NCBI GenBank assembly: GCA_965217775.1
Contig: CBDCJH010000002.1
Location: 3,318,686-3,382,685 of the forward strand
DNA: 64,000 nucleotides
Source of the DNA: Acidobacteriota bacterium
GTDB taxonomy: Bacteria > Acidobacteriota > UBA6911 > RPQK01 > JAJDTT01
Reading direction: 5' to 3'
Shown here piece by piece: positions 2,595 through 40,867 of the stretch. Positions within the stretch are counted from its first letter, which is position 1, and the number at the start of each line of letters is the position of its first letter. The notes beneath the pieces were generated by a model. The model saw only the letters and a list, made by a program, of their open reading frames with translations. It did no database searches and was not told the DNA's origin. The position numbers were made by a program, and so were the translations under genes.

Positions 2595-2860
2595 ATGACA
2601 TTGACCACGGCTCAACTGAAACAGTACGAGCAGGAGGGCTTCGCCGTCGGCGGGTGCATACTGTGTGTGAATGAGCTGACCCGACTCCGTGCGGAGATCG
2701 ACAGTCTGATCGAGACTCTTTCTCCGAGGGAGACATCCCGAGAACATGCCCTCGGTTCACTATGGCCGGCCCTACTTCCTGGATTTGCTTCTGGACCAGC
2801 GGCTGTTGGACGTGGCGGAGAAGATCCTGGGGCCCGACATTACGCACTTTACCTCGGGGA
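2595..2860 (+). pseudogene. phytanoyl-CoA dioxygenase (PhyH)-like gene fragment, frameshifted and 3'-truncated
   Basis: A GGAGGAAG RBS precedes the ATG. The N-terminus MTLTTAQLKQYEQEGF..ELTRLRAEIDSLIE resembles a PhyH N-terminus. Similarity continues in another frame (YFLDLLLDQRLLDVAEKILGPDI, ORF 2746-3009) and is then lost. There are only about 90 codons before the next gene. Confidence 0.45.
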
Positions 2861-3031
2861 TGTCGTCACCCGTGGAGCCCGGACCCGAAGCGGTGACGGA
2901 CATCGAGGTCTTCATCGACCATCACCTCATGGATCGTCTGGTTGGAGTGTCGCTGCGTGGCTACACTTTCTGCTGCGCGACATCGAACTGCACGCTCTGC
3001 AATTCGTGAAGGGCTGAGGAGAACCCGCACC

Positions 3032-4483
3032 ATGCACCTGAGAACCAGTGCCATTTTCGCCGCTCTGGCGACGATCATCGCCGAGGGGGTCGCTCCTGCG
3101 GCCGATCCCGTCGACATCGGAACACGGCGAGAGCTGTTTGTGGATCATTTCCTGATCGACAAGGTCGCCGGCGCCCGTCTTCAACTCCACCATCCCCGCC
3201 GGGAAGGTCCAGCCGTGCATTTCGTGGACAAACCCTGGGAGGGCCACCTCAGCGGCTACGTGACCGTGCTCAAGGACGGTCCCCTGTACCGAATGTACTA
3301 TCGGGGCCGTTCCGAATTGGGACGAGGGGACCGAAACGTCGTCGAGGTGACCTGTGTGGCTGAGTCGGAGGACGGCATTCGCTGGACGAAGCCGGCGCTG
3401 GGCTTTTATGAAATCCATGGGACCAGGGAAAACAACGTGGTACTGGCGGGCAAGCCTCCCTACTCGCACAACTTCTCTCCCTGGATCGACACGCGGCCCG
3501 GGGTGCCCGCCAAGGAACGGTACAAGTCCCTTTCCGGCCTGTATCCGGAGGGGTTGGCCCTCTTCGTCTCGGCCGACGGCCTGCGCTGGACGCTGGATAA
3601 GGAGCCAGCCGTCACCTACCCGGGCAAGGCCTTCGACAGCCAGGCGTGTGCCTTCTGGTCAGACAATGAGGGGCAGTACGTCTGTTATTTCCGGACCTTC
3701 AAGAACGGGATGCGCTGGATCTCTCGGACCACCAGCCGGGACTGCCGGAGTTGGACGACACCAGTCGAGATGCACTATGGAGACACCCCACCCGAGCAGT
3801 TCTACACCAATATGACCCAGCCCTATTACCGCGCCCCGCACATCTACATCGCTCTGGCACAGCGCTTTTTCCCCCGCCGCTCGGCGCTGCCGGAAGCGGA
3901 GTCCGCTCGCTTGGTGTCCGACGCGGCACTGAGGGGCTTCAGCAGCGACGTGGCCCTCATGAGCACCCGGGGGGGCAGGGTCTATCATCGAACTTTTCTC
4001 GAATCCTTCATCCGACCCGGACGCACCGCCCGTGACTGGGCAAGCCGCAACAACACCGCCGCCTGGGGCATCGTTCCGGCCGCAGCCGATCCCCGAACTC
4101 TCTACATTTACCGCCAAGCGGACGTGGCTCAGCCCACGAACCACGCGATTCGGTACTCGCTTCGAGTGGATGGCTTTGCCTCGGTGTGGGCTCCTTTTGC
4201 GGGCGGCGAGCTGATCACAAAACCGCTCATCTTTCGGGGAAGCCGACTGGAGATCAATTTCGATACGTCCGCAGCGGGCTCCATCCGTGTCGAGCTCCAG
4301 GATCCATCAGGCCGCCCACTGCCCGGGTTTGTACTCGAAGACTGCGAAGAGATACTCGGAAATGAGATCAGCAGAGTCGTCCGCTGGCGCAACCGAGAGG
4401 ACCTCGGCGCCTTGGCCGGCAAGCCGATCCGCCTCCGATTCGTCATGAAGGACGCCGACCTCTACTCTCTCCGATTCCAGTAG
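3032..4483 (+). CDS. putative glycoside hydrolase-like protein, type A propeller/sandwich family
   Basis: GAGGAG RBS and signal peptide MHLRTSAIFAALATIIAEG. Same conserved blocks as 1066-2541 (RELFVDHFLID, YRMYYRG, CVAESEDGIRWTKP, PYYRAPHIY, LRVDGFAS, GSIRVELQD, RLRFVMKDADLYS). Confidence 0.85.
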   Translation: MHLRTSAIFAALATIIAEGVAPAADPVDIGTRRELFVDHFLIDKVAGARLQLHHPRREGPAVHFVDKPWEGHLSGYVTVLKDGPLYRMYYRGRSELGRGDRNVVEVTCVAESEDGIRWTKPALGFYEIHGTRENNVVLAGKPPYSHNFSPWIDTRPGVPAKERYKSLSGLYPEGLALFVSADGLRWTLDKEPAVTYPGKAFDSQACAFWSDNEGQYVCYFRTFKNGMRWISRTTSRDCRSWTTPVEMHYGDTPPEQFYTNMTQPYYRAPHIYIALAQRFFPRRSALPEAESARLVSDAALRGFSSDVALMSTRGGRVYHRTFLESFIRPGRTARDWASRNNTAAWGIVPAAADPRTLYIYRQADVAQPTNHAIRYSLRVDGFASVWAPFAGGELITKPLIFRGSRLEINFDTSAAGSIRVELQDPSGRPLPGFVLEDCEEILGNEISRVVRWRNREDLGALAGKPIRLRFVMKDADLYSLRFQ

Positions 4484-4758
4484 GACTTGGCACGCACTTA
4501 TCATCGGAGGGTGCGCAACGGCGTTCGAGGGACCGAAGAATCTGGACAGGATTAAGAGCAACGATACCGGGTTCGCCGTGGCCAAGATGGCGGAAATGAC
4601 TCGTCTTGAGAGTATGCTTGGTGCTTGACCCTGGTCCTTGCCTTCCCGTGACCCCCGGCGCAGAGCCCGACGGCGTGCGTCAAGGTGCCGTCTGGAATTC
4701 AGCCACCACTCCGGTGATCGACTTGACACGATCGCCGAGGATCTGCGAGTTCTTGCGC

Positions 4759-6108
4759 GTGCACGCCAGGCACCTGATCCTCCTTGCCACCATGACCGCC
4801 GCGTCGGTCCCTGCCTGTACGGTGGAAACCGATTCCCGGCGGAACCGCCCCAACATCGTCCTGATCATGGCGGACGATCTGGGCTACGAGGCCCTGGGCG
4901 CCTACGGAGGCAGCTCGTACTCGACACCTATGCTGGACCGATTGGCCCGCCAGGGGATTCGCTTTGACCACGCCTACTCACAGCCGCTTTGCACCAACAC
5001 CCGGGTACAGCTGATGACAGGCCGCTACCAGCACCGCTACTGGCAGGCCTTCGGCATCCTGCCGAACCGGGAGCGAACCATTGGCCATCTGATGCAGGCG
5101 GCGGGCTACCGGACGCTGATTGCCGGGAAATGGCAGTTGCACAGCTATGACCCAGTGGACTATCCCGGCGCGGAGGAGAGACGGGGAACGGGAATGCGGG
5201 GGGCCGAATCGGGATTCGACGAGTATCTACTCTGGCACGCCTGGCATGCCGAGGACAAAGGATCACGGTATGCGGATCCCACCTTCGACCTCAACGGGGA
5301 GCTGATCAAGGAGAAAATGGGAGTTTACGGATCCGACATCTTCGTGGACTACATCAACGATTTCGTAGAACGAAACCGCGGCGTTCCGTTCTTTGTCTAC
5401 TACCCGATGGTGCTTACACACGACCCCTTCGTACCCACTCCGGACAGTCCCCGATGGCACGATGAATCCCGGCGTCACCTGCAGGATCCGGCCTATTTCG
5501 CCGACATGGTCGCCTACATGGACAAGCTGGTTGGAAAGATTGTGGCCATCCTCGACCGGCTGGATCTGCGCCAAAAGACTCTCGTCTTGTTCTACGCCGA
5601 CAACGGCACCCACAGGTCGATTTCATCGCGGCTCGGCAGCCGGATGATCCAGGGTGGAAAGGGAAAGACGACCGATGCCGGTACCCGAGTGCCGATGATC
5701 ATCAGCTGGCCCGGAACCGTGCCGGCCGGCGTGGTGTCAGAGGATCTCATCGACTCGGTCGATATCTACCCGACGCTCGCAGAGCTGGCGGGCACCCGGC
5801 TCCCAGACCAACCCCTGATCGACGGCATCAGTTTTGCGGATCGGCTATTGGGCCGGGACGGCGATCCCCGCAACTGGATCTTCGTAAACTTCGAGCCGAG
5901 ACCGGGATGGGACAAGGACAAGTACTCGGAACTCACCTTCGTCCGCGACCATAAATACAAGCTGTACGATAACGGAGAGCTCTATGACGTCGAATCCGAT
6001 GTGCTCGAAGCCAACCCCATTCAGGCGTCCGTGCGCACCAAGATGCAACGGCGGATCACCGAGAAGTTTCAGAGCGTCATGGAGAGACTCCAGGGCCGCA
6101 AGGAATGA
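4759..6108 (+). CDS. S1 sulfatase (lipoprotein), copy 1 of a duplicated pair, non-canonical C-T-N-T-R active-site motif
   Basis: Sulfatase blocks NIVLIMADDLGYE, PLCTNTRVQLMTGRY, GKWQLH, YADNGTH, GKGKTTDAGTRVP, DIYPTLAEL, ELYD. Lipobox ..SVPAC. The start is set at a GTG conserved in the paralog at 11249; the ORF-track start at 4606 would add an implausible leader. Confidence 0.9.
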   Translation: MHARHLILLATMTAASVPACTVETDSRRNRPNIVLIMADDLGYEALGAYGGSSYSTPMLDRLARQGIRFDHAYSQPLCTNTRVQLMTGRYQHRYWQAFGILPNRERTIGHLMQAAGYRTLIAGKWQLHSYDPVDYPGAEERRGTGMRGAESGFDEYLLWHAWHAEDKGSRYADPTFDLNGELIKEKMGVYGSDIFVDYINDFVERNRGVPFFVYYPMVLTHDPFVPTPDSPRWHDESRRHLQDPAYFADMVAYMDKLVGKIVAILDRLDLRQKTLVLFYADNGTHRSISSRLGSRMIQGGKGKTTDAGTRVPMIISWPGTVPAGVVSEDLIDSVDIYPTLAELAGTRLPDQPLIDGISFADRLLGRDGDPRNWIFVNFEPRPGWDKDKYSELTFVRDHKYKLYDNGELYDVESDVLEANPIQASVRTKMQRRITEKFQSVMERLQGRKE

Positions 6109-6259
6109 CCGGCGGGCGCCGACCCGACTGCGCCTGCGGCCTCCCTCCATCGCCCGCCGTCGATTCGTAGCCAATCCGGGTGCCATTTTCGGGAGGTGAA
6201 ACTGGCGCGAACCCTCATTAGCGACGCTCCATCCGCACCTCATGCAGGAGCCTCCGCTG

Positions 6260-6375
6260 CTACTGCACGGTCGCGGCATGAGAGGGGTCATCGGCAAGAT
6301 TCACCAGTTTCTGAGGATCCTCCCGATGATCGTAGAGTTCCCGGCCCCTCATGCCTTCCTCCCAGTCGCTGAAAC
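6260..6375 (-). pseudogene. sulfatase C-terminal fragment
   Basis: The minus-strand frame reads ..[38 protein letters not shown]. This matches the ELYD-x-x-x-DP-x-x-x-x-NLA signature found near sulfatase C-termini. There is no upstream catalytic part. Confidence 0.45.
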
Positions 6376-7385
6376 GGCAGGGCGCGATCTTCATCTTCAC
6401 GACCGACAACGGCTCGTCGGCCGGAGACCTCGTGTTCAACGCAGGCATGCGGGGCAGGAAGGGGAGCGAATACGATGGGGGCCATCGGGTGCCGTTCTTC
6501 ATCCACTGGCCGGAAGGTGGCCTCATCGGCGGAAGGGACGTCGACCCCATCACAGCTCACGTCGACGTGCTGCCGACTCTGGCTGACCTATGTGGGATCC
6601 GGGCGCCGAAGGGCGTGAAGCTGGATGGGCGGAGCGTCCGCCCCCTGTTGTTCGGTGAGGCGGCCCCGGAGGATGGCAGTTGGCCCGACCGGATCCTGGT
6701 CACGGACTCGCAGCGGGTCAAGGATCCACTCAAGTGGCGCAAGAGTTCGGTCATGACGAGCCGCTGGCGGCTGGTCAATGGAGAAGAGCTCTACGACATC
6801 AAGTCCGACCCTGGCCAACGGCAGGACGTCGCCCCGTCGCATCCGCAGGTGGTGGCACGCCTGAGGGACTTCTACGAATCCTGGTGGGCCGAGTTGGAGC
6901 CGACCTTTCGGCAGGACGCCCGGATCTATCTGGGACACGAAGCGGACAATCCGACGACTCTGACCAGTCACGACTGGATCGCCACGGACTATACCCCCTG
7001 GAACCATTCCCACATCCGCGATGCCCTGACCGGTGCCGGCCACATCGGTCACTGGAACGTCCACGTGGCCCAAAAGGGCGACTATGAGTTCCGCCTGCGT
7101 CGCTGGCCGGCAGCAGCGGACACGCCGATCACGACCGGCCTCGACCCCGGCGAACCGGTCCCGGGCGAGCCGGCCTTCCGGACCACGCCGGGGAAGGCTC
7201 TGGCGATCGTGAAGGCTACCTTGGAGATCGCTGACCGGGAAGTGGAGAAACCCGTCGCCCCCGGTGCCAACGACGTCGTCTTCAACCTGAATCTGAGCCC
7301 CGGCCCCGCCACGCTGACGGCCCGCTTGATCGCCAGGGAAGGCCAAGCCTACGGGGCATACTATGTGTCGGTGAAGAGACGGTGA
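6351..7385 (+). pseudogene. 5'-truncated sulfatase (central and C-terminal part only)
   Basis: It starts inside the conserved block [11 protein letters not shown], followed by [28 protein letters not shown] and ELYDIKSDPGQ, plus a long C-terminal extension. The N-terminal roughly 230 aa carrying the metal ligands and the formylglycine motif are absent. Confidence 0.65.
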
Positions 7386-13386: not shown

Positions 13387-14088
13387 ATGAAGCGGCTCTT
13401 GTCATTTTCTGCGATTGCATTCCACATCTTGGCCGCCTCTTGTCCGTCCGTGAGGATGGCAAGGGCGGCAACTCCGTTCGCCACCGATCTGTTTGTCGGC
13501 GGGCAGGGCGGCTACCACGCTTATCGAATCCCGGCGATGATCGTCTCGCCGCAGGGCTCGCTGATCGTCTTCTGCGAGGCTCGCAAGTCGAGCCTGTCGG
13601 ACCACGGGGATATCGACCTGCTCCTGCGGCGTAGCGAAGACGGCGGCAGGACTTGGCTGGCGCCGCGGCTGGTGATCGAGGAAGGCGGAGACGCCCCGAT
13701 CAAGTACGGCAATCCCACGGCAGTCGTCGATCGGGAAACGGGCTCCATCTGGTTGGCAGTCAATCGCGATTACCTCGACCCACGTGGCCGGCGTCAGGGA
13801 GGAAGACCCCTTCTCCTTCGCAGCGACGACGACGGAAACAGTTGGTTGAACCCGATAGACATATACGGCGCAGACGAAAAAACCGGTTGGAAGCATTACG
13901 CATTCGGCCCCGGCATCCGCATTCAACTGCAGCACGGCCGGCACCAAGGCCGGCTCATCCTGCCGGCCAACTATCGAGAGTCATTCGACAAACGGCAACC
14001 AAGTCGGTCCCACGTCATCTTCAGCGACGATCACGGCAGATCATTGAATGCCGTTGCGGCATTGGGAGAAAGACCGGACAGGTACTGA
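13387..14088 (+). CDS. GH33 sialidase, C-terminally truncated (probably non-functional)
   Basis: Signal peptide, YRIP motif, and Asp-boxes SEDGGRTW and SDDDGNSW. The third Asp-box is broken (SDDHGRS then unrelated residues and a stop). It has 233 aa versus 384 aa for the intact paralog at 32711-33865. Confidence 0.7.
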   Translation: MKRLLSFSAIAFHILAASCPSVRMARAATPFATDLFVGGQGGYHAYRIPAMIVSPQGSLIVFCEARKSSLSDHGDIDLLLRRSEDGGRTWLAPRLVIEEGGDAPIKYGNPTAVVDRETGSIWLAVNRDYLDPRGRRQGGRPLLLRSDDDGNSWLNPIDIYGADEKTGWKHYAFGPGIRIQLQHGRHQGRLILPANYRESFDKRQPSRSHVIFSDDHGRSLNAVAALGERPDRY

Positions 14089-14103: not shown

Positions 14104-16413
14104 ATGTTCAGACACCTGCAACGAGTGTTGGCGGCGGCGGCCGTGGTGCTGCCTGCGCTAGCCTCGACGCCTCTGGACCGTCCGCCCCGGCAGGATGAGC
14201 AGACGTTCCTGCTGCTGCATCTGGACGAGCCGGACGAAGGAATAGCGGTCGCCGACAAGGTGCTGGTGGATCCCGTCTACGTGCGGATGGAGGCCCGGCA
14301 CCAGCAGGGACGTTTCGGTGGAGCTCTGAAGTTCGTAGGTCGGCCAGGTCTCCGCCAGTGTCTGTTGGTTTCTCTGCCCCAGCCGCAATATCTGACCCGT
14401 CACACCCGCAAGCGTCCACCCATCCGCTTCGCGGATGTCGAAGTGCCGGTGGTCCTCATGGACAACCAGAGGGGCTACACCATCGAGTTCTGGATGCTTC
14501 CCCAGGCCCGGCAGGCGCAGGTCATGCTGGCGGGGGTCAACTCGGCGACCTGGGTCCCCACATCCTCCTGGAAGGTGGAAATCACCGGGCAAGGGCGGTT
14601 GCGTTTCGCCAGCGGAGCCGGCCTCCACCGTTTTTACATGGAGAGCGAGAAGCCAGTCGCCATCGGCCGCTGGACCCACGTGGCCGTGGTCTGCGACAGG
14701 GGCAACGTGGGCATTTATCTCAACGGCCGCCGGTCCGGTCCGTTTCGGCGGATGGAACTGGCAGAGCGCCAGGGGGTGGGCGAGCCCGGAAGCGACGGCT
14801 CCATCCTGTGTGTCGGCGGTCCCGGGCCGGACGCCCAAACCGGCTTCTTCGACGGCCTGATCGATGAGGTCCGCCTTTCCACGGCGCCGCGCCGTTTCGA
14901 GCCCGATCCCGCCATCCTGATCGGCAACGGCAAGGAGCTGTTCCTGGATGATTTTCTGCTGGCTCGAATGGAGGGGATCGAACGGGTCGTGAACCAACCT
15001 GAGCGCTACCCGGGCAACCCGCTGCTGACGGCCAAGGGCGACTGGGAAGCCGGCTCCATGCAACAGTTCGGAACCCTCTATGATCCCCGGCTGCAATTGT
15101 TCCGAACCTGGTACCGGGCCAACAACAGCGAGGACAACCAGATGAGCATGTGCTACGCCGTGAGCCGCGACGGCCTTCGGTGGGAGCAGCCGGTGCTGGG
15201 TCTGGCGGAATATCGAGGCTCGACGCGGAACAACATCGTCACGCCGAAGCGGTCCTTCTTCGTGTTCCTGGACCCTCTGGCCCGGCCAGGCGAGGGGAAC
15301 ATCTGCGCCAGCGCGAAGATGCTTTACGGGTCCGACCGGGGGACCTTCAAGCAGATCCTCCTGCGCTCCCCCGACGGACTCCACTGGCCCTGGGGGCCGG
15401 TGCGGAACATGAGCGGCTACCAGGGTTGGCCCTACAGCCGCATCCGCCGCCAGGAAGCCGTCATGGCCACCGACCGGCCGCTCATGCAGAATCCAGTCTA
15501 CTTCGCCCGCCTCGACAAGATGACGGTGATCGCCAACGAGGGCGAGGGGTTGAAGGACCGGGTCTATGCCCGCATCGGGTGGGACCTGACCCACTGGCAG
15601 GACCCGGTCTTGACGGACCTGAAGCGGAGCGAAAAAAACAATCTGGGCTGGTACGGCATCCGGACCAAGGACGAGTCCAGCGTCCTGGTGGGATTCACCG
15701 ACGCCTACCACAATGAGCAGAATCCGGATCCCCGCTGGAGGAGCCTGGGGCCCGAGGCCTACCAGGACAAGCCCAGCGCCTGGCTCGACATTCAGCTCAT
15801 CAGTTCGCGCGACGGCTACCGTTGGCAGCACGTGGCGGACCAGGATGTGTTCCTGCCGGTGGGTCCGGAGGGCGCCTGGGACGAGGGGATGGTGCTGTAC
15901 GCACAGGCCGTCGAGCCTCCGGGATCGGACCGGATCTACCTCTACTACCAGGGCTCGCCCGTCCGCCACGACATGACCGATGCCGGATGGCTCCAGTGGC
16001 ACGCCCGTTCCCAACGACCCTCAAACAACATGGGCGTCGCGTTTCTGAGGAAGGAGGGCTACGTCAGCCTGGAGGTGAAGCCGGATGCGGCCGAAGGCGT
16101 GGTCGAAACCCGGCCGCTCCGATACCGGGGACGGCACCTCTTCGTCAATGCCGACGCCTCGAAGGGCGCGGTCCAGGTGGAACTCTGCGACGAGACGGGG
16201 AATCCCCTGTCCGGGTTCGGACGGAAGCGGGCCCTGCCGTTGACGACGGACGTGACGAACCATCTCATTCGCTGGGGCCAAGAGAGCGACGTCTCGCGGT
16301 TTGCGGGCCAGGCTGTGGTCCTTCGTTTCCACCTGACACCGGGCGCAAAATTGTACGCGTATCGCTTTGGTGGGCCCGACCCCCACCTGGATCTCGAGCG
16401 CCGGGAGCCGTAG
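14104..16413 (+). CDS. LamG/ConA-like lectin domain fused to type B propeller/sandwich glycoside hydrolase-like module
   Basis: The N-terminal roughly 270 aa (RFGGALKF.., FTIEFWM, WTHVAVVCD, IYLNG, FDGLIDEVRLS) has the LamG-type jelly-roll pattern. The remainder aligns with 38086-39717 and 46621-48165 (ELFLDDFLL, GNPLL, YDP..QLFRTWY, AVSRDGLRWEQP, NNIV, SRDGYRW, VVLRFHL..AKLYAYRF). It is a paralog of 35681-38011. Confidence 0.85.
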   Translation: MFRHLQRVLAAAAVVLPALASTPLDRPPRQDEQTFLLLHLDEPDEGIAVADKVLVDPVYVRMEARHQQGRFGGALKFVGRPGLRQCLLVSLPQPQYLTRHTRKRPPIRFADVEVPVVLMDNQRGYTIEFWMLPQARQAQVMLAGVNSATWVPTSSWKVEITGQGRLRFASGAGLHRFYMESEKPVAIGRWTHVAVVCDRGNVGIYLNGRRSGPFRRMELAERQGVGEPGSDGSILCVGGPGPDAQTGFFDGLIDEVRLSTAPRRFEPDPAILIGNGKELFLDDFLLARMEGIERVVNQPERYPGNPLLTAKGDWEAGSMQQFGTLYDPRLQLFRTWYRANNSEDNQMSMCYAVSRDGLRWEQPVLGLAEYRGSTRNNIVTPKRSFFVFLDPLARPGEGNICASAKMLYGSDRGTFKQILLRSPDGLHWPWGPVRNMSGYQGWPYSRIRRQEAVMATDRPLMQNPVYFARLDKMTVIANEGEGLKDRVYARIGWDLTHWQDPVLTDLKRSEKNNLGWYGIRTKDESSVLVGFTDAYHNEQNPDPRWRSLGPEAYQDKPSAWLDIQLISSRDGYRWQHVADQDVFLPVGPEGAWDEGMVLYAQAVEPPGSDRIYLYYQGSPVRHDMTDAGWLQWHARSQRPSNNMGVAFLRKEGYVSLEVKPDAAEGVVETRPLRYRGRHLFVNADASKGAVQVELCDETGNPLSGFGRKRALPLTTDVTNHLIRWGQESDVSRFAGQAVVLRFHLTPGAKLYAYRFGGPDPHLDLERREP

Positions 16414-16414
16414 C

Positions 16415-17908
16415 ATGTTCAGGGTCCCTGGTAACCGCACCAGTGGACGGCTGTATTCCGCGGCTCTACGCCGGGCACGAACGTTTCCTCTTCTCCTGCT
16501 CTCGGCTTTCCTGGCCGGATTCTCCTCCGGATGCACCCGGCAGCTCGAGCGGCCGAACATCGTTTTGATCCTGGCCGATGACCTGGGCTGGAACCAGTTG
16601 GGCTGCTACGGAAGCAGTTTCTACGAGACTCCCAACCTCGACGGCATGGCTCGAGAGGGGATGCGTCTCACCGACGCCTACGCGGCCAGCCCCGTCTGCT
16701 CCCCGACTCGAGCCAGCATCATGACGGGCAAGTACCCGGCGCGACTCCACGTCACCAAGTTCATCTCGCCGCAGGACTACGTCCCCAACCCGAACGCCAA
16801 GCTGTTGGATCCCGACTGGACACCCTATCTGCGCTTGGAGGAGGAGACGATCGCCGAAGCCTTGAAGAAGCTGGGGTACGTGACGGCCGGCTTCGGAAAA
16901 TGGCACCTCAGCCGCGTCAAGACGCCTCCCGAGAGCCTGCCCTTCAATCCGGACAAGCAAGGTTTCGACCAGCACTTCGTAACCTACAAGCCGGTCCCAT
17001 CCATGGCCAGGAAGTGGCAGACGCCGGAGGACGATGCCCACAACGTGGGAATCATCACCGAGAAGTCCCTGGAGTTCATGGAGAAGAACCGTGAGAGGCC
17101 CTTCTTCCTCTTCGTTTCGCACAACAGCATTCACACCCCCCTGGTGGAGAAGAAGGCTCTGATCTCCAAGTACCGGAGGAAGCCGGACGTCGACTCTCCC
17201 ACCAACCACCCGGTTATCGGAGCCATGATCGAGACCCTGGATCGCAGTGTCGGCCGGCTGCTGGCCAAAATCGACGAGATGAAGCTGACCGAGAGGACCC
17301 TCGTGCTTTTCTATTCCGACAACGGAGGATTGGATTGGACCGCGACCGAGGGGCAGATCGCCGCCAACGATCCGTTGCGGGCCGGAAAGGCCGACCTCTA
17401 CGAAGGGGGAATCCGGGTGCCCTTGATCGTCCGCTGGCCGGGCCGAATCCCCCCCGGCCGCGTCTCCGGGGAACCTGTCAACAGCGTGGATCTCTTTCCC
17501 ACGCTGCTGGAGGCAGCCGGAGGCACCGAGACGGGCAAGGACACCGACGGCGTGAGCCTGCTGCCGCTTCTCACGGGGCCCGTGGTCCCCGGCCGGGACG
17601 CGCTCTTCTGGCACTACCCCCACTACCACAAGTTCGGAGCCTTCCCTTCGAGCGCCATCCGGAAGGGTGAGTACAAACTGATCGAGTGGCACGAGGCCGG
17701 GATCTACGGATCGGACAATCGGTACGAACTCTACGACTTGGTGGACGATCTGGGGGAGTCTCGAAATCTGGCCTCCGTCCTGCCGGAGAAGACCCGGGAA
17801 CTGGCAGCCGACCTGGAGAACTGGCGGCGCTCGGTGGGAGCCCAGATGCCGAAGCGCAACCCCGACTATCGGCCGGAAGGCCAGCCGCGGGCGCGTGACC
17901 GGGAGTAG
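16415..17908 (+). CDS. S1 sulfatase (lipoprotein), canonical CSPTR motif
   Basis: Lipobox FSSGC. Blocks NIVLILADDLGWN, SPVCSPTRASIMTGKYP, GKWHL, SDNGG, GKADLYEGGIRVP, DLFPTLLE. The ATG lies 2 nt after the upstream stop. It is a close paralog of 53555-55000. Confidence 0.92.
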   Translation: MFRVPGNRTSGRLYSAALRRARTFPLLLLSAFLAGFSSGCTRQLERPNIVLILADDLGWNQLGCYGSSFYETPNLDGMAREGMRLTDAYAASPVCSPTRASIMTGKYPARLHVTKFISPQDYVPNPNAKLLDPDWTPYLRLEEETIAEALKKLGYVTAGFGKWHLSRVKTPPESLPFNPDKQGFDQHFVTYKPVPSMARKWQTPEDDAHNVGIITEKSLEFMEKNRERPFFLFVSHNSIHTPLVEKKALISKYRRKPDVDSPTNHPVIGAMIETLDRSVGRLLAKIDEMKLTERTLVLFYSDNGGLDWTATEGQIAANDPLRAGKADLYEGGIRVPLIVRWPGRIPPGRVSGEPVNSVDLFPTLLEAAGGTETGKDTDGVSLLPLLTGPVVPGRDALFWHYPHYHKFGAFPSSAIRKGEYKLIEWHEAGIYGSDNRYELYDLVDDLGESRNLASVLPEKTRELAADLENWRRSVGAQMPKRNPDYRPEGQPRARDRE

Positions 17909-32463: not shown

Positions 32464-32710
32464 GTACGAAGCTCGATCCCGCCCGATCTGATCCCAGCTT
32501 TACCTATGAAGGATCGCAAGCGATTGACGGGCGTCCGTTACGGTGCGAAGCTGCGGAATAGGCGAGGGCTCTCGGATGCCTACCCTCCGAGGCGGAGAGG
32601 ATTGTGCGGTTGTCCGACTCCATCCAGCACGCACGGATTCAATAACGGTCCGACTCTCTTGCCGGAACCTACGGACCGGATCACTTCGGGGTGAAGTGGA
32701 GAATTCCACT

Positions 32711-33865
32711 ATGAGACCCACAACCCATTTTTTCTGGACCGCCGCGGTGCTTCTAGCCTCTCTTTCGGCGTCGAGCGCCCAACCCTTGATCGACCATGTC
32801 GATGTCTTCGCCTCCGGGAGCGAGGGCTATCACACCTTCCGGATTCCAGCGATCGTGCGAGCGCCGGACGGTTCGCTACTGGCCTTCGCGGAGGGTCGCA
32901 AGGAGAATCGCCGCGACCCCGGAGGAGGCGACATCGATCTGGTCTACAAGCGAAGCAAGGATCGCGGCGCCAGTTGGTCCCCGCTAAAGATCGTGGACGA
33001 CCCCGGCGTGGGGTGGAGCGCTTCCAACCCGACCCCCGTCATCGAGCGGAACAGCAGCCGTATTCTGATTGTCTACAACCGTTGGGAGCCGGGCTTCGGA
33101 ACCGCCCTTTCCCGGCCCGGGACCGACAACAACCAGGCGTGGTTCCGGTACAGCGACGACCACGGCGGCAACTGGTCGGAACCTCGGGAGATCACCCGGG
33201 AGGCGAGGGATCATGAGGACTGGGGAGCCATGTTCCTGGGTCCCGGAGGGGCGATCCAGACGCGCAGCGGTCGGCTGCTGGTTCCCGCCGCGGCCAAGAT
33301 CGGAACGGCCTTCTCGATCCTGGTGTCCGCCGACCAGGAACCTCGGACCGCCACCTACATGCGCGCCTACGTCCTGTTCAGCGACGACCGGGGCGAAACC
33401 TGGAGCCGAGGAGAATTGGTCGACGCTCTCACGGACGAGAATCAATTGGTCGAACTGGCCGACGGGACCATCTTGATGGACGCCCGGCAGAGCCGCGGCG
33501 GCCGGCGCTGGGTTGCGATCAGCGGCGACGGAGGAAGCACCTGGTCCCGGCCGCGACCTGGACAAGAAGTCACCAGGGTCGCCACGGCCATCGAACGCTA
33601 CAGCCTGCACTCCGCGGGCGCCGGACGGAATCGAATCCTGTGGACGGGCCCCAAGGGACCCGGCCGCCTCAACCTCGTTCTACGGGTCAGCGACGATGAA
33701 GGGCAGACCTTCGGCCGGGAGAAACTCCTCTACGGAGGATTCTCAGCCTACTCCGACCTGGAGATGTTGGATGACGGGTCGGTCGGGGTATTGTGGGAGA
33801 GAGGGCTCAGTGCGAGCTACCAATTCATCACCTTCACCCGATTCCGCCTGGAAGCCCTGGAGTGA
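32711..33865 (+). CDS. GH33 exo-alpha-sialidase
   Basis: Signal peptide, FRIP motif, and Asp-boxes SKDRGASW, SDDHGGNW, SDDRGETW, SGDGGSTW, SDDEGQTF. Confidence 0.88.
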   Translation: MRPTTHFFWTAAVLLASLSASSAQPLIDHVDVFASGSEGYHTFRIPAIVRAPDGSLLAFAEGRKENRRDPGGGDIDLVYKRSKDRGASWSPLKIVDDPGVGWSASNPTPVIERNSSRILIVYNRWEPGFGTALSRPGTDNNQAWFRYSDDHGGNWSEPREITREARDHEDWGAMFLGPGGAIQTRSGRLLVPAAAKIGTAFSILVSADQEPRTATYMRAYVLFSDDRGETWSRGELVDALTDENQLVELADGTILMDARQSRGGRRWVAISGDGGSTWSRPRPGQEVTRVATAIERYSLHSAGAGRNRILWTGPKGPGRLNLVLRVSDDEGQTFGREKLLYGGFSAYSDLEMLDDGSVGVLWERGLSASYQFITFTRFRLEALE

Positions 33866-33886: not shown

Positions 33887-35533
33887 ATGACTCTCCCCCT
33901 CCGTGAGGACGCCGCCCCGGCGGCGCGGGCCGTAAAAACCGCTGCCCCGAGTTGGCATGCCATGAAGCCGATGGATCTGAAAGGCTCTATGGAACTGGCC
34001 GGCCGAAACTTGGTGGCGAACCTCTGTCCTACGCGCAACTACCTCCCCTATTGGGCGATCGAAATCGACTCCGGTTATGGAGCCTGGGCGCGCTTCACCT
34101 GGCCCCAGCACAACGTCGGCCGATGGTGGGATGCGATGCTGCGGCTGGAGGCCGCGACCGGATTCCGGATTCCGCCCGATCGGGAAGCCGCCATGTTGGG
34201 CAATCTGCACTCCTTTTTCGACAACCCCGATCACTTCTGCCTCGCTCCTCGCCATTTCGAGGGGCCCGGACTGGAGCTCCACTCCCTGAGAGAGGGTCTG
34301 CAGGCCCTGGTCGCGCTGGCGCGCCACCGGAACAGCCGTTGGGCGGAGCGGAAGGGCCGGCTGATGATCGAATCCCTCCTGCGGGTATCCGACGGGAAGG
34401 GAGGTTGGAAGCTCCAGGAGATCGACTCTGCCCGGCATTTCGACAAAGGGTATTACCAGAAGGTCAAGCCGGTGAGCAGTAGCACGGACGGACGGTTGAT
34501 CGAGGCCCTGGTCTGGTTCTATCAGTCCACGCACGATCCCCTGGCGCTGGCTGCGGCCCGGCGCTTTGCCAAGTACCACCTTCCGCACACGACCCATCCT
34601 GACGGCCGCCTGAACCTCGCTTCGGGATCGAATCACACCCATTCGTATTTCGGGACGCTCCGGGGTTTGCTTCTCTACGGCGAACTCACGGATCAGCACG
34701 GGTACGTCGATGCGGTAGAGTCGACATATCGGAGGACGGTTCGCACGATGGTCAAGAGATCGGGATTCATCTCCCACGACCTGGGAATGGACAACCGGGG
34801 AGAGACGGCTTCCCCTGGCGACGCCGCTCAACTGGCTCTGTGGCTGGCAACCCGGCACGGCTTCACGGAGTACCTCGACGATGTGGAGCGGATCGTCCGA
34901 GCACGGATCCTCCCTTCACAGGTCACAGAGACGCCGCCACTCCATCCCTCATCGGACGGGGACGGGGACGGGGACGGCGACGAATACCGGAATCTCCGGG
35001 CCCGTGTCCTGGGAGCCTACGGGGGCATGCACCTGGAACCCCATTCCGGCACCAAACCCACCACCGATGTCACGGCAGCCTGCCTCCACACTCTTGCGGA
35101 CATCTATCACCACGTCCTCTTGAGGGGCGATTCCGGACTGAAGATCCTGCTGCACCTGGACTACGAAGATTCGAGAGCCCGAATCCGATCCCGGAGAGGA
35201 GAGAGAACGGGCCGCCTGACGGTGCTGCCCCGAATCCGGGAGAATGTCCTGATCCGTATCCCTCGATGGACGCCCCTGAGTTCGGTCCGTCTCAGGGTAC
35301 GCGGCGCTCCGCTCGACCCGAAAATCTATGGAGACTTCGTCCTCATCGCCGGGAATCTCATGCCGGCGGAAATCACCCTCGAATACGGCCTGCCCGTGAC
35401 CCGGGAGGTCGAACGGACGACCGGTGTGGATTACCATTTGATGTGGCGGGGCGACGAAGTCATCGGGATCACGCCCAACAACCGCTTCTATCCCTTCTAC
35501 CCGGACTATCCTGGTGAGACGGAAACAGAATGA
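33887..35533 (+). CDS. hypothetical protein, possibly an alpha/alpha-toroid glycoside hydrolase/lyase-like fold
   Basis: Long ORF with codon usage like its neighbours and no motif I can assign. The helix-rich repeats (..WWDAMLRLEAATG.., ..LIEALVWFYQSTHDPLALAAARRFAKY.., ..AAQLALWLATRHG..) suggest an (alpha/alpha)6-type fold. Contains a DGDGDGDGDE stretch. Confidence 0.5.
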   Translation: MTLPLREDAAPAARAVKTAAPSWHAMKPMDLKGSMELAGRNLVANLCPTRNYLPYWAIEIDSGYGAWARFTWPQHNVGRWWDAMLRLEAATGFRIPPDREAAMLGNLHSFFDNPDHFCLAPRHFEGPGLELHSLREGLQALVALARHRNSRWAERKGRLMIESLLRVSDGKGGWKLQEIDSARHFDKGYYQKVKPVSSSTDGRLIEALVWFYQSTHDPLALAAARRFAKYHLPHTTHPDGRLNLASGSNHTHSYFGTLRGLLLYGELTDQHGYVDAVESTYRRTVRTMVKRSGFISHDLGMDNRGETASPGDAAQLALWLATRHGFTEYLDDVERIVRARILPSQVTETPPLHPSSDGDGDGDGDEYRNLRARVLGAYGGMHLEPHSGTKPTTDVTAACLHTLADIYHHVLLRGDSGLKILLHLDYEDSRARIRSRRGERTGRLTVLPRIRENVLIRIPRWTPLSSVRLRVRGAPLDPKIYGDFVLIAGNLMPAEITLEYGLPVTREVERTTGVDYHLMWRGDEVIGITPNNRFYPFYPDYPGETETE

Positions 35534-35680: not shown

Positions 35681-38011
35681 GTGCGACTCTGGACCTGTTT
35701 CGTTATTGCCCTGATGGGAGTGAGTCATCCGGCCGTCGCGGCGGTCTCGCTGGAGCGAGCGCCGCAGCGCGACGAGGAAACCTTGCTGTACCTACCTTTG
35801 GACGAGCCGGACGAAGCGATCCTCATCGGCGACCGGCTCGCCATCGATCCCGTGTACCTGAGGATGGAGGCCAAGTACAAACGGGGCCGTTTCGGCGGGG
35901 CTCTGAAGTTCACGGGCCGGCCGGGGCTGCGCCAGTGCATGCTGGTATCGCTGCCCCAACGGTTCCACAGTGAGCGCCACGGCAGCCGTAAGCCCACGGT
36001 CATCGCCCGGATGGGCGACCGGGCTCAGGTGGTGGTCGACGTGCCCGAAGTGCTCACGGACATGGAACGAAGTTTCACCATCGAGTTTTGGGTGTTCCCG
36101 CAAGTGCTTCAGAATCAGACCATCGTTTCAGGGGTGAACACCGCCACCTGGGTTCCGGAGGCCTCCTGGCAGGTGGACCTGGCCGCCGACGGGAGGCTGC
36201 GCTATGCCTGCGGCTCGGGACTGCATCGCTTCGAGATGTTCAGCGACCGCCCGGTCCACATCGGCCAGTGGACGCACGTCGCGGTGGTCTGCGACACGGG
36301 CGTCTTCAGGATCTATCTCAACGGAAGCCCGGAGAGTGGCATGCAACGGATGAAGACGGCCAGAACCCAGGGCGTCACGCAACCGGGCAGTGACGGGACG
36401 ATCCTCTGCGTGGGCGGACCGGGTCCCGATGCCCTGGCCGGTTTCTTCGACGGTCTGGTCGACGAGCTGCGTTTCTCCACGGTTCCCCGGTCCTTCGATC
36501 CGGATCCGGCCGTTCTGATCCGAAACCGAAAGGAACTCTTCCTGGACGACGATCTGATCGCGGGCATGAGGGGCGTCCGTCGAGTCGTCAACCAGCCGGA
36601 ACGATACGAGGGCAATCCGCTGCTGGAGCCGAGAGGGGAATGGGAGGGGCGTTCCCTTCAGGAGCTGGGGCTCATCTACGACCATCGGCTGGGGCTGTTT
36701 CGCACCTGGTATCGCGCCATGGACAGCGCGGATACCGAGGCCAGCATGTGCTATGCCTTCAGCCGCGACGGCCTGCACTGGGAACAGCCGGAACTGGGTC
36801 TGGAAGAATATGGCGGCTCCACCCGTAACAACATCGTGGCTCGGAAGCGGTTTTTCTTCGTGTTCCTCGACCCGCTGGCCCGTCCTGGCGAGGGCAGAAT
36901 CTGCGCCACGCACAAATTGAAATACGGGGGGAACCGAGGTCCCTTCAAACAGATACTGATGCGCTCCCCCGACGGTTTGCAGTGGCCCAGTGACGAGGTG
37001 ACCAACATGAGCGGCTACTACAGTTGGGGCGCCAGGCGCTACCGCCGGATGGAAACGATCATGGGGGTGGACAGACCGATTCCCTACGCTCCCGTCTATT
37101 TCGGCAAGATCGACAAGTTGACCATCATTGAAAAGGAGGGGGAGGGGCTGAAGTCCCTGCAGTTCGCGCGCATCGGCTGGGATCTGACCCATTGGCAGAA
37201 CCCGTATCTGACCGACTTGGCGCAGACCGAAAAGAACAATCGAGGCTGGTACGGGATCAAGACCCGCGATGAGGAGAGCGTCCTGGTGGGAATTGCCGAC
37301 GCCTACCATGCCGAGGACTTGGGCCCCGAGGGCAGGAAACGCTGGCGAACCATGGGACCCGACTGCTACAAGCGGGAGGAGAGCCGATGGGTGGATTTTC
37401 AACTGATCAGCTCGCGTGACGGCTACCACTGGCGGCACGTTGCCGATCAGGCCACCTTTATGCCGGTGGGAACCGAGGGAACCTGGGACGAAGGGTCGCT
37501 CTACTACGCGCAGGTGGTGGAACCGCCCGGCTCCGACAAGCTCTACATCTATTACGAGGGCTACAAGGTCCGCCACGACTTCTCCGATCAGGGTGGCCAG
37601 GAATGGTTCGCGGAGCACAGGCATCCCGTCTGCAATCTCGGCGTCGCCTTCCTGCGCAAAGACGGCTACGTCAGTCTGGAAGCCGACGGTTCCGGAACCG
37701 TGGGGATCGTCGAAACCAAGCCGATCCGATTTTCCGGCCGGCACCTGTTCGTGAACGCGGATGCCTCGGGAGGCGCAATCCAGGTGGAGCTGTGTAATGC
37801 GGCGGGCGAGCCCCTGCGCGGCTTCAGCCGCGAAGAGGTCACGCCGCTGACCACGGACGATCTGCGGCATCGGGTCGAATGGGGCGCAACCGCGGACCTG
37901 TCGGGCCTGGCCGGCAAGGCGGTGGTGTTGAGGTTCCACCTGGAGGGGAATGCCCGCCTCTACTCCTATCGTTTCGGAGATCCCGACCCCCATTCTCGCG
38001 GGTCCGACTGA
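35681..38011 (+). CDS. LamG/ConA-like lectin domain fused to type B propeller/sandwich glycoside hydrolase-like module (paralog of 14104-16413)
   Basis: GGAGGAG RBS with a GTG start, and a signal peptide. Collinear with 14104-16413 over its full length (RFGGALKFTGRPGLRQC, FTIEFWVFPQ, WTHVAVVCD, FDGLVDELRFS, ELFLDDDLI, AFSRDGLHWEQP, SRDGYHW, VVLRFHLEGNARLYSYRF). Confidence 0.85.
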   Translation: MRLWTCFVIALMGVSHPAVAAVSLERAPQRDEETLLYLPLDEPDEAILIGDRLAIDPVYLRMEAKYKRGRFGGALKFTGRPGLRQCMLVSLPQRFHSERHGSRKPTVIARMGDRAQVVVDVPEVLTDMERSFTIEFWVFPQVLQNQTIVSGVNTATWVPEASWQVDLAADGRLRYACGSGLHRFEMFSDRPVHIGQWTHVAVVCDTGVFRIYLNGSPESGMQRMKTARTQGVTQPGSDGTILCVGGPGPDALAGFFDGLVDELRFSTVPRSFDPDPAVLIRNRKELFLDDDLIAGMRGVRRVVNQPERYEGNPLLEPRGEWEGRSLQELGLIYDHRLGLFRTWYRAMDSADTEASMCYAFSRDGLHWEQPELGLEEYGGSTRNNIVARKRFFFVFLDPLARPGEGRICATHKLKYGGNRGPFKQILMRSPDGLQWPSDEVTNMSGYYSWGARRYRRMETIMGVDRPIPYAPVYFGKIDKLTIIEKEGEGLKSLQFARIGWDLTHWQNPYLTDLAQTEKNNRGWYGIKTRDEESVLVGIADAYHAEDLGPEGRKRWRTMGPDCYKREESRWVDFQLISSRDGYHWRHVADQATFMPVGTEGTWDEGSLYYAQVVEPPGSDKLYIYYEGYKVRHDFSDQGGQEWFAEHRHPVCNLGVAFLRKDGYVSLEADGSGTVGIVETKPIRFSGRHLFVNADASGGAIQVELCNAAGEPLRGFSREEVTPLTTDDLRHRVEWGATADLSGLAGKAVVLRFHLEGNARLYSYRFGDPDPHSRGSD

Positions 38012-38085: not shown

Positions 38086-39717
38086 CTACTCCTCCAGGAA
38101 TCGGAAGGCGAAAAGACGGGAGTTCTTCAGGTAGAACTTGAGCTTGATGACTTGACCCTCCAATCCGCTCAGTTCGCTACGGCCGTTCCAAGCGGCGATC
38201 CCGGTTCGCGTCAGGGGATCCGAGTCCTGAAACGTGTGTCCCCGGACCCGGAAGTAATCTCCAGCCAGGATCTCCACCCGGACCTCCCCGGAGCCGGTCT
38301 TCGGCCCCTTCGCCAGGTTGACCTCGAGACGCTTGCCGGAGAAGGAAAAGGCCCGCGTGATCACCTGCGCGTAGCCCTCGGCGCCATCCGTCCGGGCGGC
38401 GTCTTCGATCGAGCCCAACGCCTTGGCGTTGAAGCCGGCTCCCGCTTCGGTCGCTCCCGGCTCCAGGGAGACGAAACCGTCCATCGGAATCGTGGCCACT
38501 CCCATGGCGCCCATGGGTCCGGGGCCGCCGACCTCGCGAAAGAGACGATCCCGGAAGTTGGTGCCGTGGTAGAAGATGAAGAAACGATCCCCATGGAGAA
38601 TGGGTTGCTGGGCGTAGATGGTCACGGAATCCCAGGCCGGCTCCTCTCCCAGCCGAATGAAGGGCTCCCGGTAGCGCCTGTCCCAGTGAATCCCGTCACG
38701 GCTGAAGACGAACTGGGGCCATATGTAGAGCGGGTCCTCGGGAGTCCTCCGGCCGGGACGATAGTTCCAGAGCATCCCCAGGTAGAGGCCTTCATGGGTG
38801 GTGGCCCACATGCTGTAGAAATGCAGCCCTGCCGGGTCCCGGTCGTCGGGGACGATAATGGTCTGGGGATCGGACCAGTGAATCAGGTCCCGGCTTTCGG
38901 CTCTCCCGATCAGCCGCATCCGCAGCCCGCAGCGCTTATGCTGGCAGTTCTCCATGTGCATGGCATAGACCTGACGGATCGGATCCCAACCGACGGTGGC
39001 CGTCGGTCCCCACAGATAGCTCTGGTACCCTCTCCGCCTGGCCCAGGGTTCGCCTTCGGGATTAACCTTGGCAGGTCCCGAGGGACGAATTACGGGGTTG
39101 CCCGGGTGGGGCACCCAGTTGAAGGCGTCGGCCGAGTAGTAGAGGTTCCAAACCCGGGTCCTCTTGACCTCCAACTGTCCGGGGACGGTCCCTTCGGCTG
39201 CCACCTGGGCCAGCGCCTTGTAGCGGCGTGAGGGGTCCTGCTCGCGGGGATCGACGAAGATGCCGCCTTTGATGGAAGGCCAGTTCGCGGGCGCCAGGAT
39301 GTTGTTGTCCCGGGAACCCCGGAACTCCACGAAACCCAGCGAGGGCTTTTCCCACCGGTAACCGTCCCGGGATTCGGCGTACAGGAATTTCCGGTCCTTG
39401 CCGTTGGGTTTTCCATCTTCGTCGGCGTACAGGACACTCGAGGTGTACCACATGCGAAACCGTTGGCGGGCGTCATCGTAGAAAACGGTCCCGTAGTGCA
39501 GAGACTGCCCCTCCCAGGGACGGTCCTGGCGGATGACCGGGTTTCCTTCATGCTTCCGGGCGGTATGGAATACGCGACGGGCGCCCACCAGAGCCTCGAC
39601 CAGGTATTCGTCCAGAAACATCTGCTTCTGGGAACCGATGTGGATGAGCCCGGGAGGACCGGCCTGCACCGCACCGCCCAGCCAGACGTAGAGCGCCAAT
39701 AAGAATCGACCCTGCAT
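38086..39717 (-). CDS. putative glycoside hydrolase-like protein, type B propeller/sandwich family
   Basis: Signal peptide. Blocks QMFLDEYLVE, GNPVI, PWEG, FRMWY, YAESRDGYRWEKP, NNIL, SADAFNW, SRDGIHW, VIKLKFYLKNSRLFAFRF. It is a paralog of 46621-48165. Confidence 0.85.
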   Translation of the reverse strand: MQGRFLLALYVWLGGAVQAGPPGLIHIGSQKQMFLDEYLVEALVGARRVFHTARKHEGNPVIRQDRPWEGQSLHYGTVFYDDARQRFRMWYTSSVLYADEDGKPNGKDRKFLYAESRDGYRWEKPSLGFVEFRGSRDNNILAPANWPSIKGGIFVDPREQDPSRRYKALAQVAAEGTVPGQLEVKRTRVWNLYYSADAFNWVPHPGNPVIRPSGPAKVNPEGEPWARRRGYQSYLWGPTATVGWDPIRQVYAMHMENCQHKRCGLRMRLIGRAESRDLIHWSDPQTIIVPDDRDPAGLHFYSMWATTHEGLYLGMLWNYRPGRRTPEDPLYIWPQFVFSRDGIHWDRRYREPFIRLGEEPAWDSVTIYAQQPILHGDRFFIFYHGTNFRDRLFREVGGPGPMGAMGVATIPMDGFVSLEPGATEAGAGFNAKALGSIEDAARTDGAEGYAQVITRAFSFSGKRLEVNLAKGPKTGSGEVRVEILAGDYFRVRGHTFQDSDPLTRTGIAAWNGRSELSGLEGQVIKLKFYLKNSRLFAFRFLEE

Positions 39718-39904
39718 TGTTGGCTCCTTTCGAGTCTGGTTGCAGTGTCCGGATGCGGACTTCAGGAGGTTGGTGTTCCCACCCGTAATGGTAGGATAGC
39801 AGGAACCAGAGCCTCTGACACCCGGGATGAAGGACCCTCTACTGCCGCTCTCGCCTTGACGCCGAACGCGTCAGGACTGGGGTATGGACAGCCCCGGCAA
39901 GACG

Positions 39905-40020
39905 GACGAGCCCATCGTCATAGCCGATAACCGGACCATTGACCCGGCTTACGTCCGTATGGAGGCCAAGTACAAGCAGGGGAGATTCGGCGGAGCGCTG
40001 AAACACGTTGTTCGTCCGGG
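39905..40020 (+). pseudogene. fragment of a LamG-fusion gene N-terminus
   Basis: It encodes DEPIVIADNRTIDPAYVRMEAKYKQGRFGGALKHVVRPG, matching residues about 43-80 of 35681-38011 (DEPDEAILIGDRLAIDPVYLRMEAKYKRGRFGGALKFTGRPG). No homologous sequence lies on either side. Confidence 0.65.
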
Positions 40021-40036
40021 TAGGAGAGGAGGCATT

Positions 40037-40867
40037 ATGAAGCCCGCAAGTGTGGTTCTGATCGCGGTTCTGGTCGTCCTTCCTGCGCCGGCGTGGGGCG
40101 AGGGCGGCGATATGAGGATCGAAGACCTGCTCGAGAAACATCTGGGCTTTCTCACCGATGGCAAGGCCCCGTCGTCCGTCAACAATCGGCTGTTGTTGGG
40201 AACCTGTTCCTTCCGGGTGTTGATCGGCCGAAGTGCAAGCCTCTCGGGACCGGTCAACTTCCTCTCCCAAGGGAACAAGGTCAGACTGCTGGTCCGATTC
40301 AATGATTCCGGCTACCGCGGCGAGAACATCATCCATGACGGCAAGAGTGTCCGTGTCGACCAGATCAGTCCCGGTGCCCGATCCCAGCTCGGCGATTTCT
40401 TCTATCGCTTCGAGGAGGTGGTCCGGGAAGGACTGGTTGGAGGGGTGCTCTCCACCGCTTGGCCTCTACTCGACCTCAAGCGGCGCCAGGCGAAGCTGGA
40501 GTACGAAGGACTCAAGAAGATCGAGGGCCAGGAGCTGCATGGGGTAACGTACCACGCGAAACGGCCGGGGGAGGCTCGGGTCCATCTCTATTTCGACCCC
40601 GAGTCGTACGGTCACATGTTGACGATCTACCGGGTGATGGTGTCGCGGTCCGGGAGCGTGGCCATCCGCACCACGCGAGACCGGTTCACTTTGGAGGAGC
40701 GGTTCGGGGACTTCCGCGCTCTGGATGGGTGGGCTCTGCCCAGCCAATGGAGCCTGAAGCTCACCCTTCAAACCGATCGCGGCAACTCGGTTTCGGAGTG
40801 GAGCATGGCGATTGACAATGCCTCCCACAACCAACAGATGAACCCCCAGTATTTCAAGCTGAAATGA
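40037..40867 (+). CDS. hypothetical secreted protein
   Basis: GGAGG RBS and signal peptide MKPASVVLIAVLVVLPAPAWG. No recognisable motif. The ORF-track start at 39884 merely fuses it to the upstream LamG fragment. Confidence 0.6.
   Translation: MKPASVVLIAVLVVLPAPAWGEGGDMRIEDLLEKHLGFLTDGKAPSSVNNRLLLGTCSFRVLIGRSASLSGPVNFLSQGNKVRLLVRFNDSGYRGENIIHDGKSVRVDQISPGARSQLGDFFYRFEEVVREGLVGGVLSTAWPLLDLKRRQAKLEYEGLKKIEGQELHGVTYHAKRPGEARVHLYFDPESYGHMLTIYRVMVSRSGSVAIRTTRDRFTLEERFGDFRALDGWALPSQWSLKLTLQTDRGNSVSEWSMAIDNASHNQQMNPQYFKLK

Follow-up and report, generated by a model that had tools for sequence, protein, structure and literature searches.

Two LamG-propeller fusion proteins in an Acidobacteriota genome are probable exported, modular glycan-processing enzymes

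The window analysed here is a 64,000-nucleotide stretch of an Acidobacteriota genome (C2:3318686-3382685 of G000, 6.43 Mb; coordinates below are window positions). It carries two forward-strand genes, copy 1 (14104-16413) and copy 2 (35681-38011), each of which joins an N-terminal LamG/concanavalin A (ConA)-like jelly roll to a C-terminal, unclassified module made of a five-bladed beta-propeller and a beta-sandwich. We propose that each fusion is probably an exported modular glycan-processing enzyme, in which the LamG domain would bind or target the substrate and the propeller would be catalytic. The two-part architecture and the folds of both parts are plain from the data, both halves are under purifying selection, the fusions have a single clade origin, and their distribution is patchy in the manner of horizontal gene transfer; catalysis, the class of substrate and glycan binding by the LamG domain are what we infer. 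In what follows, P denotes metagenome or relative proteins, L loci or contigs, and G000 the source genome.

An earlier, sequence-only reading of this DNA had described the open reading frames (ORFs) at 14104-16413 and 35681-38011 as collinear proteins of about 770 residues, with which their coordinates, their lengths (769 and 776 amino acids) and their 61% identity over 764 aligned residues with 10 gaps (BLASTP) agree; at the DNA level they are 68% identical across 2.1 kb. Copy 1 has an AAGGAG Shine-Dalgarno sequence 8 nt before its start and a Sec-type signal peptide at aa 1-22; copy 2 begins with GTG behind a GGAGG Shine-Dalgarno sequence and also encodes a signal peptide. Both signal peptides are hydrophobic and have no lipobox cysteine. 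A promoter and terminator scan around copy 1 returned nothing above chance. The jelly roll of copy 1 (14200-14895, Laminin_G_3 core 14437-14883, aa 112-260) is followed by a linker and then by the module (14914-16374, aa 271-757), which comprises a propeller (aa ~271-620), a helix and a beta-sandwich (aa ~642-757). In copy 2, Laminin_G_3 lies at 36035-36490 (aa 119-270) and the module at 36515-37984 (aa 279-768), all of these on the forward strand. The linker is about 6 aa long ('EPDPAI') and invariant in the fusion clade. Stand-alone paralogs align from residue ~21-40 onward to fusion residue ~267, and the LamG domain sits precisely at the junction of the signal peptide with the mature module. 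An artefact of assembly or ORF calling was ruled out, since the same fused frame occurs in five genomes of the genus, two Planctomycetota metagenome-assembled genomes (MAGs) and several metagenome contigs, and omega is <0.2 on both halves.

The N-terminal region is a ConA-like/LamG jelly roll. The Pfam family Laminin_G_3 (PF13385) scores 62.1 bits (E 9e-17) in copy 1, 63.3 bits (E 4e-17) in copy 2 and 67.4 bits in the Planctomycetales orthologue, against a curated gathering threshold of 27.6 bits. The AlphaFold2 (AF2) model of the isolated domain (aa 1-279, from an alignment of 14 sequences) is all-beta, with a mean predicted local distance difference test score (pLDDT) of 80 and a predicted TM-score (pTM) of 0.82; confidence is lower in a loop insert at aa ~90-120 of copy 1. 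The sequence-only reading had let this assignment stand or fall with the region scoring and folding as a ConA-like jelly roll, and the region does both. The motifs on which it relied, FTIEFW, WTHVAVVCD, IYLNG and FDGL(I/V)DE(V/L)R(L/F)S, are found in both proteins; further landmarks are a first strand with an acidic 'LDEPDE' motif at aa ~34-45, 'GRFGGALKF' at aa 69-77 and the domain end 'FDGLIDEVRLS' at aa 249-259. The length of about 270 aa that it gave the jelly roll needs correction, as the fold itself covers aa ~33-264 and the rest is the signal peptide of ~22 aa and the short linker. Many residues of the domain are invariant across nine fusions of 50-70% identity.

When the domain was compared with the PDB using Foldseek, the best fit was domain 4 of the arabinanase AbnA (5hon, a ligand complex; TM-score (TMt) 0.69, E 1.6e-8). 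It ranked second by E-value to 3r4u, a chain of the clostridial neurotoxin receptor-binding region, and the 50 best matches listed also took in the trans-sialidase lectin domain, the N-terminal domain of thrombospondin, and chains of clostridial neurotoxins and PAPP-A. Searched against the PDB as a sequence profile, the nine fusions matched 4qvs, 5hon/5ho0, pappalysin-2 (PAPP-A2) and pentraxin PTX3. A search for closer LamG relatives outside the fusions gave weak matches at best (E >= 2e-11, 24-33% identity), and the C-terminus of P0179, considered as a possible relative, proved to be unrelated. By analogy, the role of the LamG domain is most likely glycan binding or substrate targeting, and carbohydrate binding is a reasonable expectation from AbnA domain 4.

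The AF2 model and Foldseek agree that, as the sequence-only reading had it, the jelly roll precedes a propeller and beta-sandwich module. The module is a five-bladed beta-propeller followed by a helix and a C-terminal beta-sandwich, with pLDDT mostly 85-98, and the propeller of copy 1 carries SxDGxxW Asp-box-like motifs at 354, 422, 492 and 568. Foldseek places it near glycoside hydrolase (GH) family 130 (7fir/7fip, TMt 0.65-0.67, root-mean-square deviation ~5 A), with GH43 and many GH32 matches (E ~1e-9) as well. The module-family profile, searched against the PDB, found GH130 7fip first (2.9e-10), the deacetylase 6n1a second (1.4e-9), then GH32 1uyp (3.8e-6), and GH117 too. From its fold and these profile matches we place the module, which is distant and unclassified, in the five-bladed 'furanosidase/GH130' fold group. 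The GH130 hidden Markov model (HMM; PF04041) does not match the module, and paralogs give a sub-threshold hit to the NCBIfam GH130 equivalog (14.7 vs 450 bits). GH32 and GH43 HMMs match none of the fusions, one paralog reaching 16 bits for Glyco_hydro_32N vs a cut-off of 22.1, and none of the GH32 motifs WMNDPNG, RDP and EC was recognised in the module. In a low-confidence profile alignment at the sequence level, D390-P391 stands opposite D109-P110 of the 7fip EDPR motif. This motif carries the GH130 proton donor, D104 in UhgbMP and D142 in BT3780, and GH130 hydrolases have signal peptides, whereas GH130 phosphorylases do not (PMC7660257); the fusions carry signal peptides, as the hydrolases do.

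Orthologues from related species give omega values of 0.11-0.19 over the LamG part and 0.13-0.17 over the module, and such low figures on both parts indicate that both halves are functional. The fusion clade retains the acidic residues of the family (D282, E/D315, D390, D457, D494, D570 and D593); D390 does not vary within the clade, and 226 of the 294 other modules have Asp at this position.

The module belongs to a very large family. Its HMM identifies 145 ORFs of at least 200 aa in the source genome, the densest stretch being C2 4.0-4.4 Mb with 26 copies, while the N-domain HMM finds in the whole genome only the two window genes and a relic match. Within the window the module recurs in ten paralogs of ~500 aa, at 24-28% identity to the C-terminal ~490 aa of the fusions (E 1e-23 to 1e-36). 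An exhaustive search of 1.84 billion cluster representatives (clusters at 50% identity) with the whole fusion protein as query returned 7,626 clusters at E <= 0.001, the weakest of which may match the LamG part alone, and 2,921 at E <= 1e-10. LamG-module fusions of the window type are rare, with 9 clusters among 5.8 billion proteins. A FastTree phylogeny of 303 modules groups the nine fusions in a single clade (support 1.0), whose sisters are P0046 and P0073, both more distant LamG_3-module proteins, and P0080; the nearest 17 tree neighbours include no paralog from the source genome. The sequence-only reading had taken the fusion module to be of 'type B', one of two stand-alone types in the region. 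The fusions are indeed nearer to type B than to type A in the tree, but they form a clade of their own, which the type B genes at 38086-39717 and 46621-48165 join only at a 223-tip node and type A only at the root, so that the label cannot be kept. The N-terminal LamG fusion thus arose once, in a lineage separate from the local expansions of types A and B.

Five of the nine species in the genus have the fusion, always as both copies; none of 32 further relatives searched from the same family and order has it. MAGs of Planctomycetales and Pirellulales carry it at 52-60% identity; the Planctomycetales copy is followed directly by a PIG-L deacetylase gene and, farther downstream, by a GH5 gene. 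Transposase genes flank the fusion on three metagenome contigs (L001-L003), and L003 also has RepA/ParA plasmid-type genes. Its presence in Planctomycetota MAGs, together with this insertion sequence- and plasmid-like context, suggests that the fusion has spread horizontally. The cassette around the L001-L003 protein (P0002; ENA) comprises a helix-turn-helix transposase-like gene, the fusion, a 317-aa ORF, DDE transposases, a PhyH dioxygenase and an SSF symporter; its setting is a sulfatase/type B cluster on contigs L001 and L002 but a RepA_C/ParA/HicB plasmid-like region on L003, and these differing surroundings suggest a composite mobile unit. Another contig (L025, ENA NODE_37239) bears two fusions (2642-4927 and 6032-7081) about 1.1 kb apart with one called gene (5054-5740) between them, a tandem pair which implies that the fusion has been duplicated independently elsewhere too.

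With P0002 copy 2 shares 70% identity, more than the 61% that it shares with copy 1. A recent tandem duplication within the genome was ruled out by this relationship, by the modest DNA identity of the two copies and by a synonymous divergence (dS) between them of >1; with copy 2 nearer to P0002, the window genes are old paralogs or separate acquisitions rather than the product of a recent local duplication.

The window type is one among several fusions of this module family. In the source genome, L040 (G000:C2:1049222-1052566) reads module-LamG_3-BNR_2, L041 module-LamG_3, and L042 a partial module followed by LamG_3, and at L043 a LamG_3 protein adjoins a module gene. Metagenome proteins add BNR_2-LamG_3-module (P0029), BNR_2-module (P0032), module-BNR_2 (P0041) and CBM9-module (P0118), and two source-genome paralogs have FG-GAP N-termini. 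About 20 module copies have N-terminal extensions of 150-540 aa, and 18 of the 20 N-terminally extended paralogs scanned in the source genome gave no Pfam match at all, so further accessory domains may exist. The claim that LamG is attached 'specifically' to this enzyme type does not survive, because LamG_3 also stands C-terminally on other clades and in triple fusions with BNR_2. LamG_3 is N-terminal to the module in some clades and C-terminal in others, and as these fusions sit in different parts of the tree it was recruited at least three times independently; CBM9 and FG-GAP were recruited to the module family once or twice each. Accessory modules commonly behave in this way. BNR_2 sialidase-like propellers recur as fusion partners of the module, and the four orders in which the two are joined (BNR_2-LamG-module, BNR_2-module, module-BNR_2 and module-LamG-BNR_2) provide a Rosetta-stone hint that both propeller types act on the same substrate. 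An origin of the window fusions from a BNR_2-LamG-module ancestor resembling P0029 found no support, the module of P0029 being far off in the tree and its LamG domain only weakly similar to the N-domain.

We envisage that the two-part protein would be exported through the Sec pathway. Its C-terminal propeller and sandwich, from a very large family that is unclassified and has GH130, GH32 and GH43 as distant relatives, would form the catalytic unit, acting on a sulfated and/or nonulosonic-acid-bearing glycan of the kind presumably handled by proteins of the surrounding island. The LamG jelly roll would be accessory to it, binding or targeting the substrate as in the GH43 enzyme AbnA.

The AbnA arabinanase of Geobacillus stearothermophilus (5ho0/5ho2/5hon) likewise couples a five-bladed propeller enzyme to a ConA/LamG-like beta-sandwich domain, but there the domain is C-terminal and the catalytic unit a bona fide GH43, whereas the window fusions have an N-terminal domain and an unclassified propeller, at an identity of ~14%. 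A ConA-like lectin domain is also covalently joined to a propeller glycosidase in Trypanosoma cruzi trans-sialidase and T. rangeli sialidase, although in these the propeller is a six-bladed GH33 with the lectin domain C-terminal, and the five-bladed module is unrelated to it in sequence. GH130 (7fip, TM1225 1vkd, BT3780) gives the module its best profile match and best TM-score, yet its members (~300-390 aa) have neither a C-terminal beta-sandwich nor a LamG domain, in contrast to the ~490-aa module without a PF04041 match. GH32 fructosidases and invertases share the layout of a five-bladed propeller followed by a beta-sandwich, but the module has no Glyco_hydro_32N/C match above threshold. 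The GalNAc deacetylase of Flavonifractor plautii carries an accessory carbohydrate-binding module. It too is a five-bladed propeller that acts on glycans (6n1a/6n1b, PDB entry title), differing in being a deacetylase and in its distance from the module (16% identity).

Several observations weigh against our proposal. The module has no match in Pfam (at E<=1) or NCBIfam, and we know of no member of its family with demonstrated activity. In the full-length AF2 model the N-domain has pLDDT <50, so that the model is uninformative on the interdomain interface. The lectin-like domain of the trypanosomal (trans-)sialidases matches the N-domain as well as AbnA domain 4 does, the top structural match of the module is a deacetylase and not a glycosidase, and three arginines conserved in 81-94% of the other modules (R399, R485 and R576) have been lost from the fusion clade, so that its pocket differs from the family norm. 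The R399 and R485 positions are now variable and R576 is an invariant His; the clade has gained invariant arginines of its own at R338, R421, R446, R448, R458 and R490. As the sister fusions P0046 and P0073 keep the family arginines, the fusion preceded this remodelling of the pocket.

The lectin-like domain of trans-sialidase is mainly a structural partner of its propeller. The LamG domain could similarly be a mainly rigid partner that packs on the propeller and shapes or extends its cleft, or oligomerises, with no glycan binding of its own. We think this unlikely, though it has points in its favour: Foldseek ranks the lectin-like domains of trans-sialidase and T. rangeli sialidase high among its matches (E ~2e-8), LamG_3 is repeatedly joined to BNR_2 propellers (P0029, L040 and the neighbour of L001), and the short invariant linker suggests a fixed interface. 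However, the ligand-complexed AbnA domain 4 matches at least as well, and the occurrence of LamG_3 on either side of the module across clades is easier to reconcile with a portable binding module than with a co-evolved structural partner.

Rather improbable, in our estimate, is a module that acts as a metal-dependent carbohydrate deacetylase like the F. plautii enzyme, or as a phosphorylase like many GH130 members, with LamG still serving in targeting. The F. plautii GalNAc deacetylase is the top Foldseek match (6n1b, E 2e-10), the best single-sequence match in the PDB (E 0.0056) and, as 6n1a, the second profile match, and a PIG-L deacetylase adjoins the Planctomycetales fusion; the TMt of 0.52 to 6n1b nevertheless falls short of that to GH130. 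A phosphorylase would suit the best profile match, GH130, but the fusions are exported and the GH130 phosphorylases have no signal peptides. We consider very unlikely a wholly non-catalytic protein that binds or senses glycans, capturing them in its remodelled pocket or presenting them to a TonB-dependent receptor: the exchange of arginines and such a receptor 3 kb from copy 2 would be in keeping with it, but the clade shows no variation at the conserved acidic residues, among them the Asp that aligns with the GH130 donor, the fusion is older than the remodelling, and purifying selection on the module is strong.

The genomic context of the exported, putatively glycan-processing fusions is glycan degradation, their surroundings including sulfatases (one of them encoded at 16367-17908), BNR_2 sialidase-like proteins, GH109, the TonB receptor and an MFS transporter. 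Directly upstream of copy 1 lies a truncated BNR_2 (sialidase-like) ORF (13387-14088, +), which covers profile positions 3-149 of 277; the same truncation is seen in L027 and L035, and L028 has no match beside its copy 1. An intact BNR_2 sialidase-like gene (32543-33865, +) is found two genes upstream of copy 2. A block duplication of sialidase, intervening gene and fusion, followed by deletion at the first locus, is unsupported: the two BNR_2 sequences are merely 33% identical vs 61% for the fusions, and the loci are thus not simple block duplicates. The gene immediately upstream of copy 2 (33887-35533, +) encodes a 548-aa protein with a DGDGDGDGDE stretch, for which Pfam, NCBIfam and a PDB sequence search gave no match. 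Its position upstream of the fusion gene is conserved: a 73% identical homologue stands beside P0002 in L001/L002, and related genomes have homologues of 88-92% identity. On its other side copy 2 adjoins a stand-alone type B module gene (38086-39717, -), and type B homologues are found beside the fusion in L001 and L024/L036 as well.

A 116-bp piece of the same N-terminus had been reported at 39905-40020 (+), and alignment and HMM both confirm it as a real relic of a third fusion gene. It corresponds to codons ~40-88, is 72-75% identical to both fusion genes in nucleotides and 56-58% in amino acids, and matches the N-domain HMM with E 2.5e-14. It is located in a divergent intergenic region between 38086-39717 (-) and a gene most likely starting at ATG 40038. 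The relic also occurs in related genomes and is partly deleted in the more distant L031. The intergenic region that contains it (39718-40037) is 99.7% identical to L026/L029, the flanking genes being 95-97% and genes farther upstream 91-92% identical; this could reflect either mosaic recombination in the population or constraint on a divergent promoter region.

Carbohydrate-active enzymes are modular in a textbook way, and AbnA, trans-sialidase and GH32 already show a ConA-like domain accessory to a propeller glycan enzyme. What is new is that the partner here is an unclassified, massively expanded family, and that the fusion is rare and patchy across phyla. More tentatively, the fusions may be a neofunctionalised, horizontally mobile subfamily in which the LamG domain and the remodelled pocket redirect a new glycan-active family to a distinct epitope, possibly a less anionic or desulfated glycan. 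The module family as a whole appears, from the four fusion orders, to act hand in hand with sialidase-like BNR_2 enzymes. Given that it has no Pfam or NCBIfam model, is of huge size and is set in sulfatase islands, it is probably a major unrecognised player in sulfated-glycan turnover. Should the fusions be such a neofunctionalised subfamily, they would give direct access to the substrate of a family that counts ~7,600 clusters and, in one genome, 145 copies. Taken in isolation, the LamG domain is a small expressible probe, and its ligand would be a guide to what the whole enzyme acts on; the LamG and BNR_2 fusions are Rosetta-stone clues to that of the module family. The patchy distribution of the fusions, for its part, documents exchange of glycan-degradation genes across phyla.

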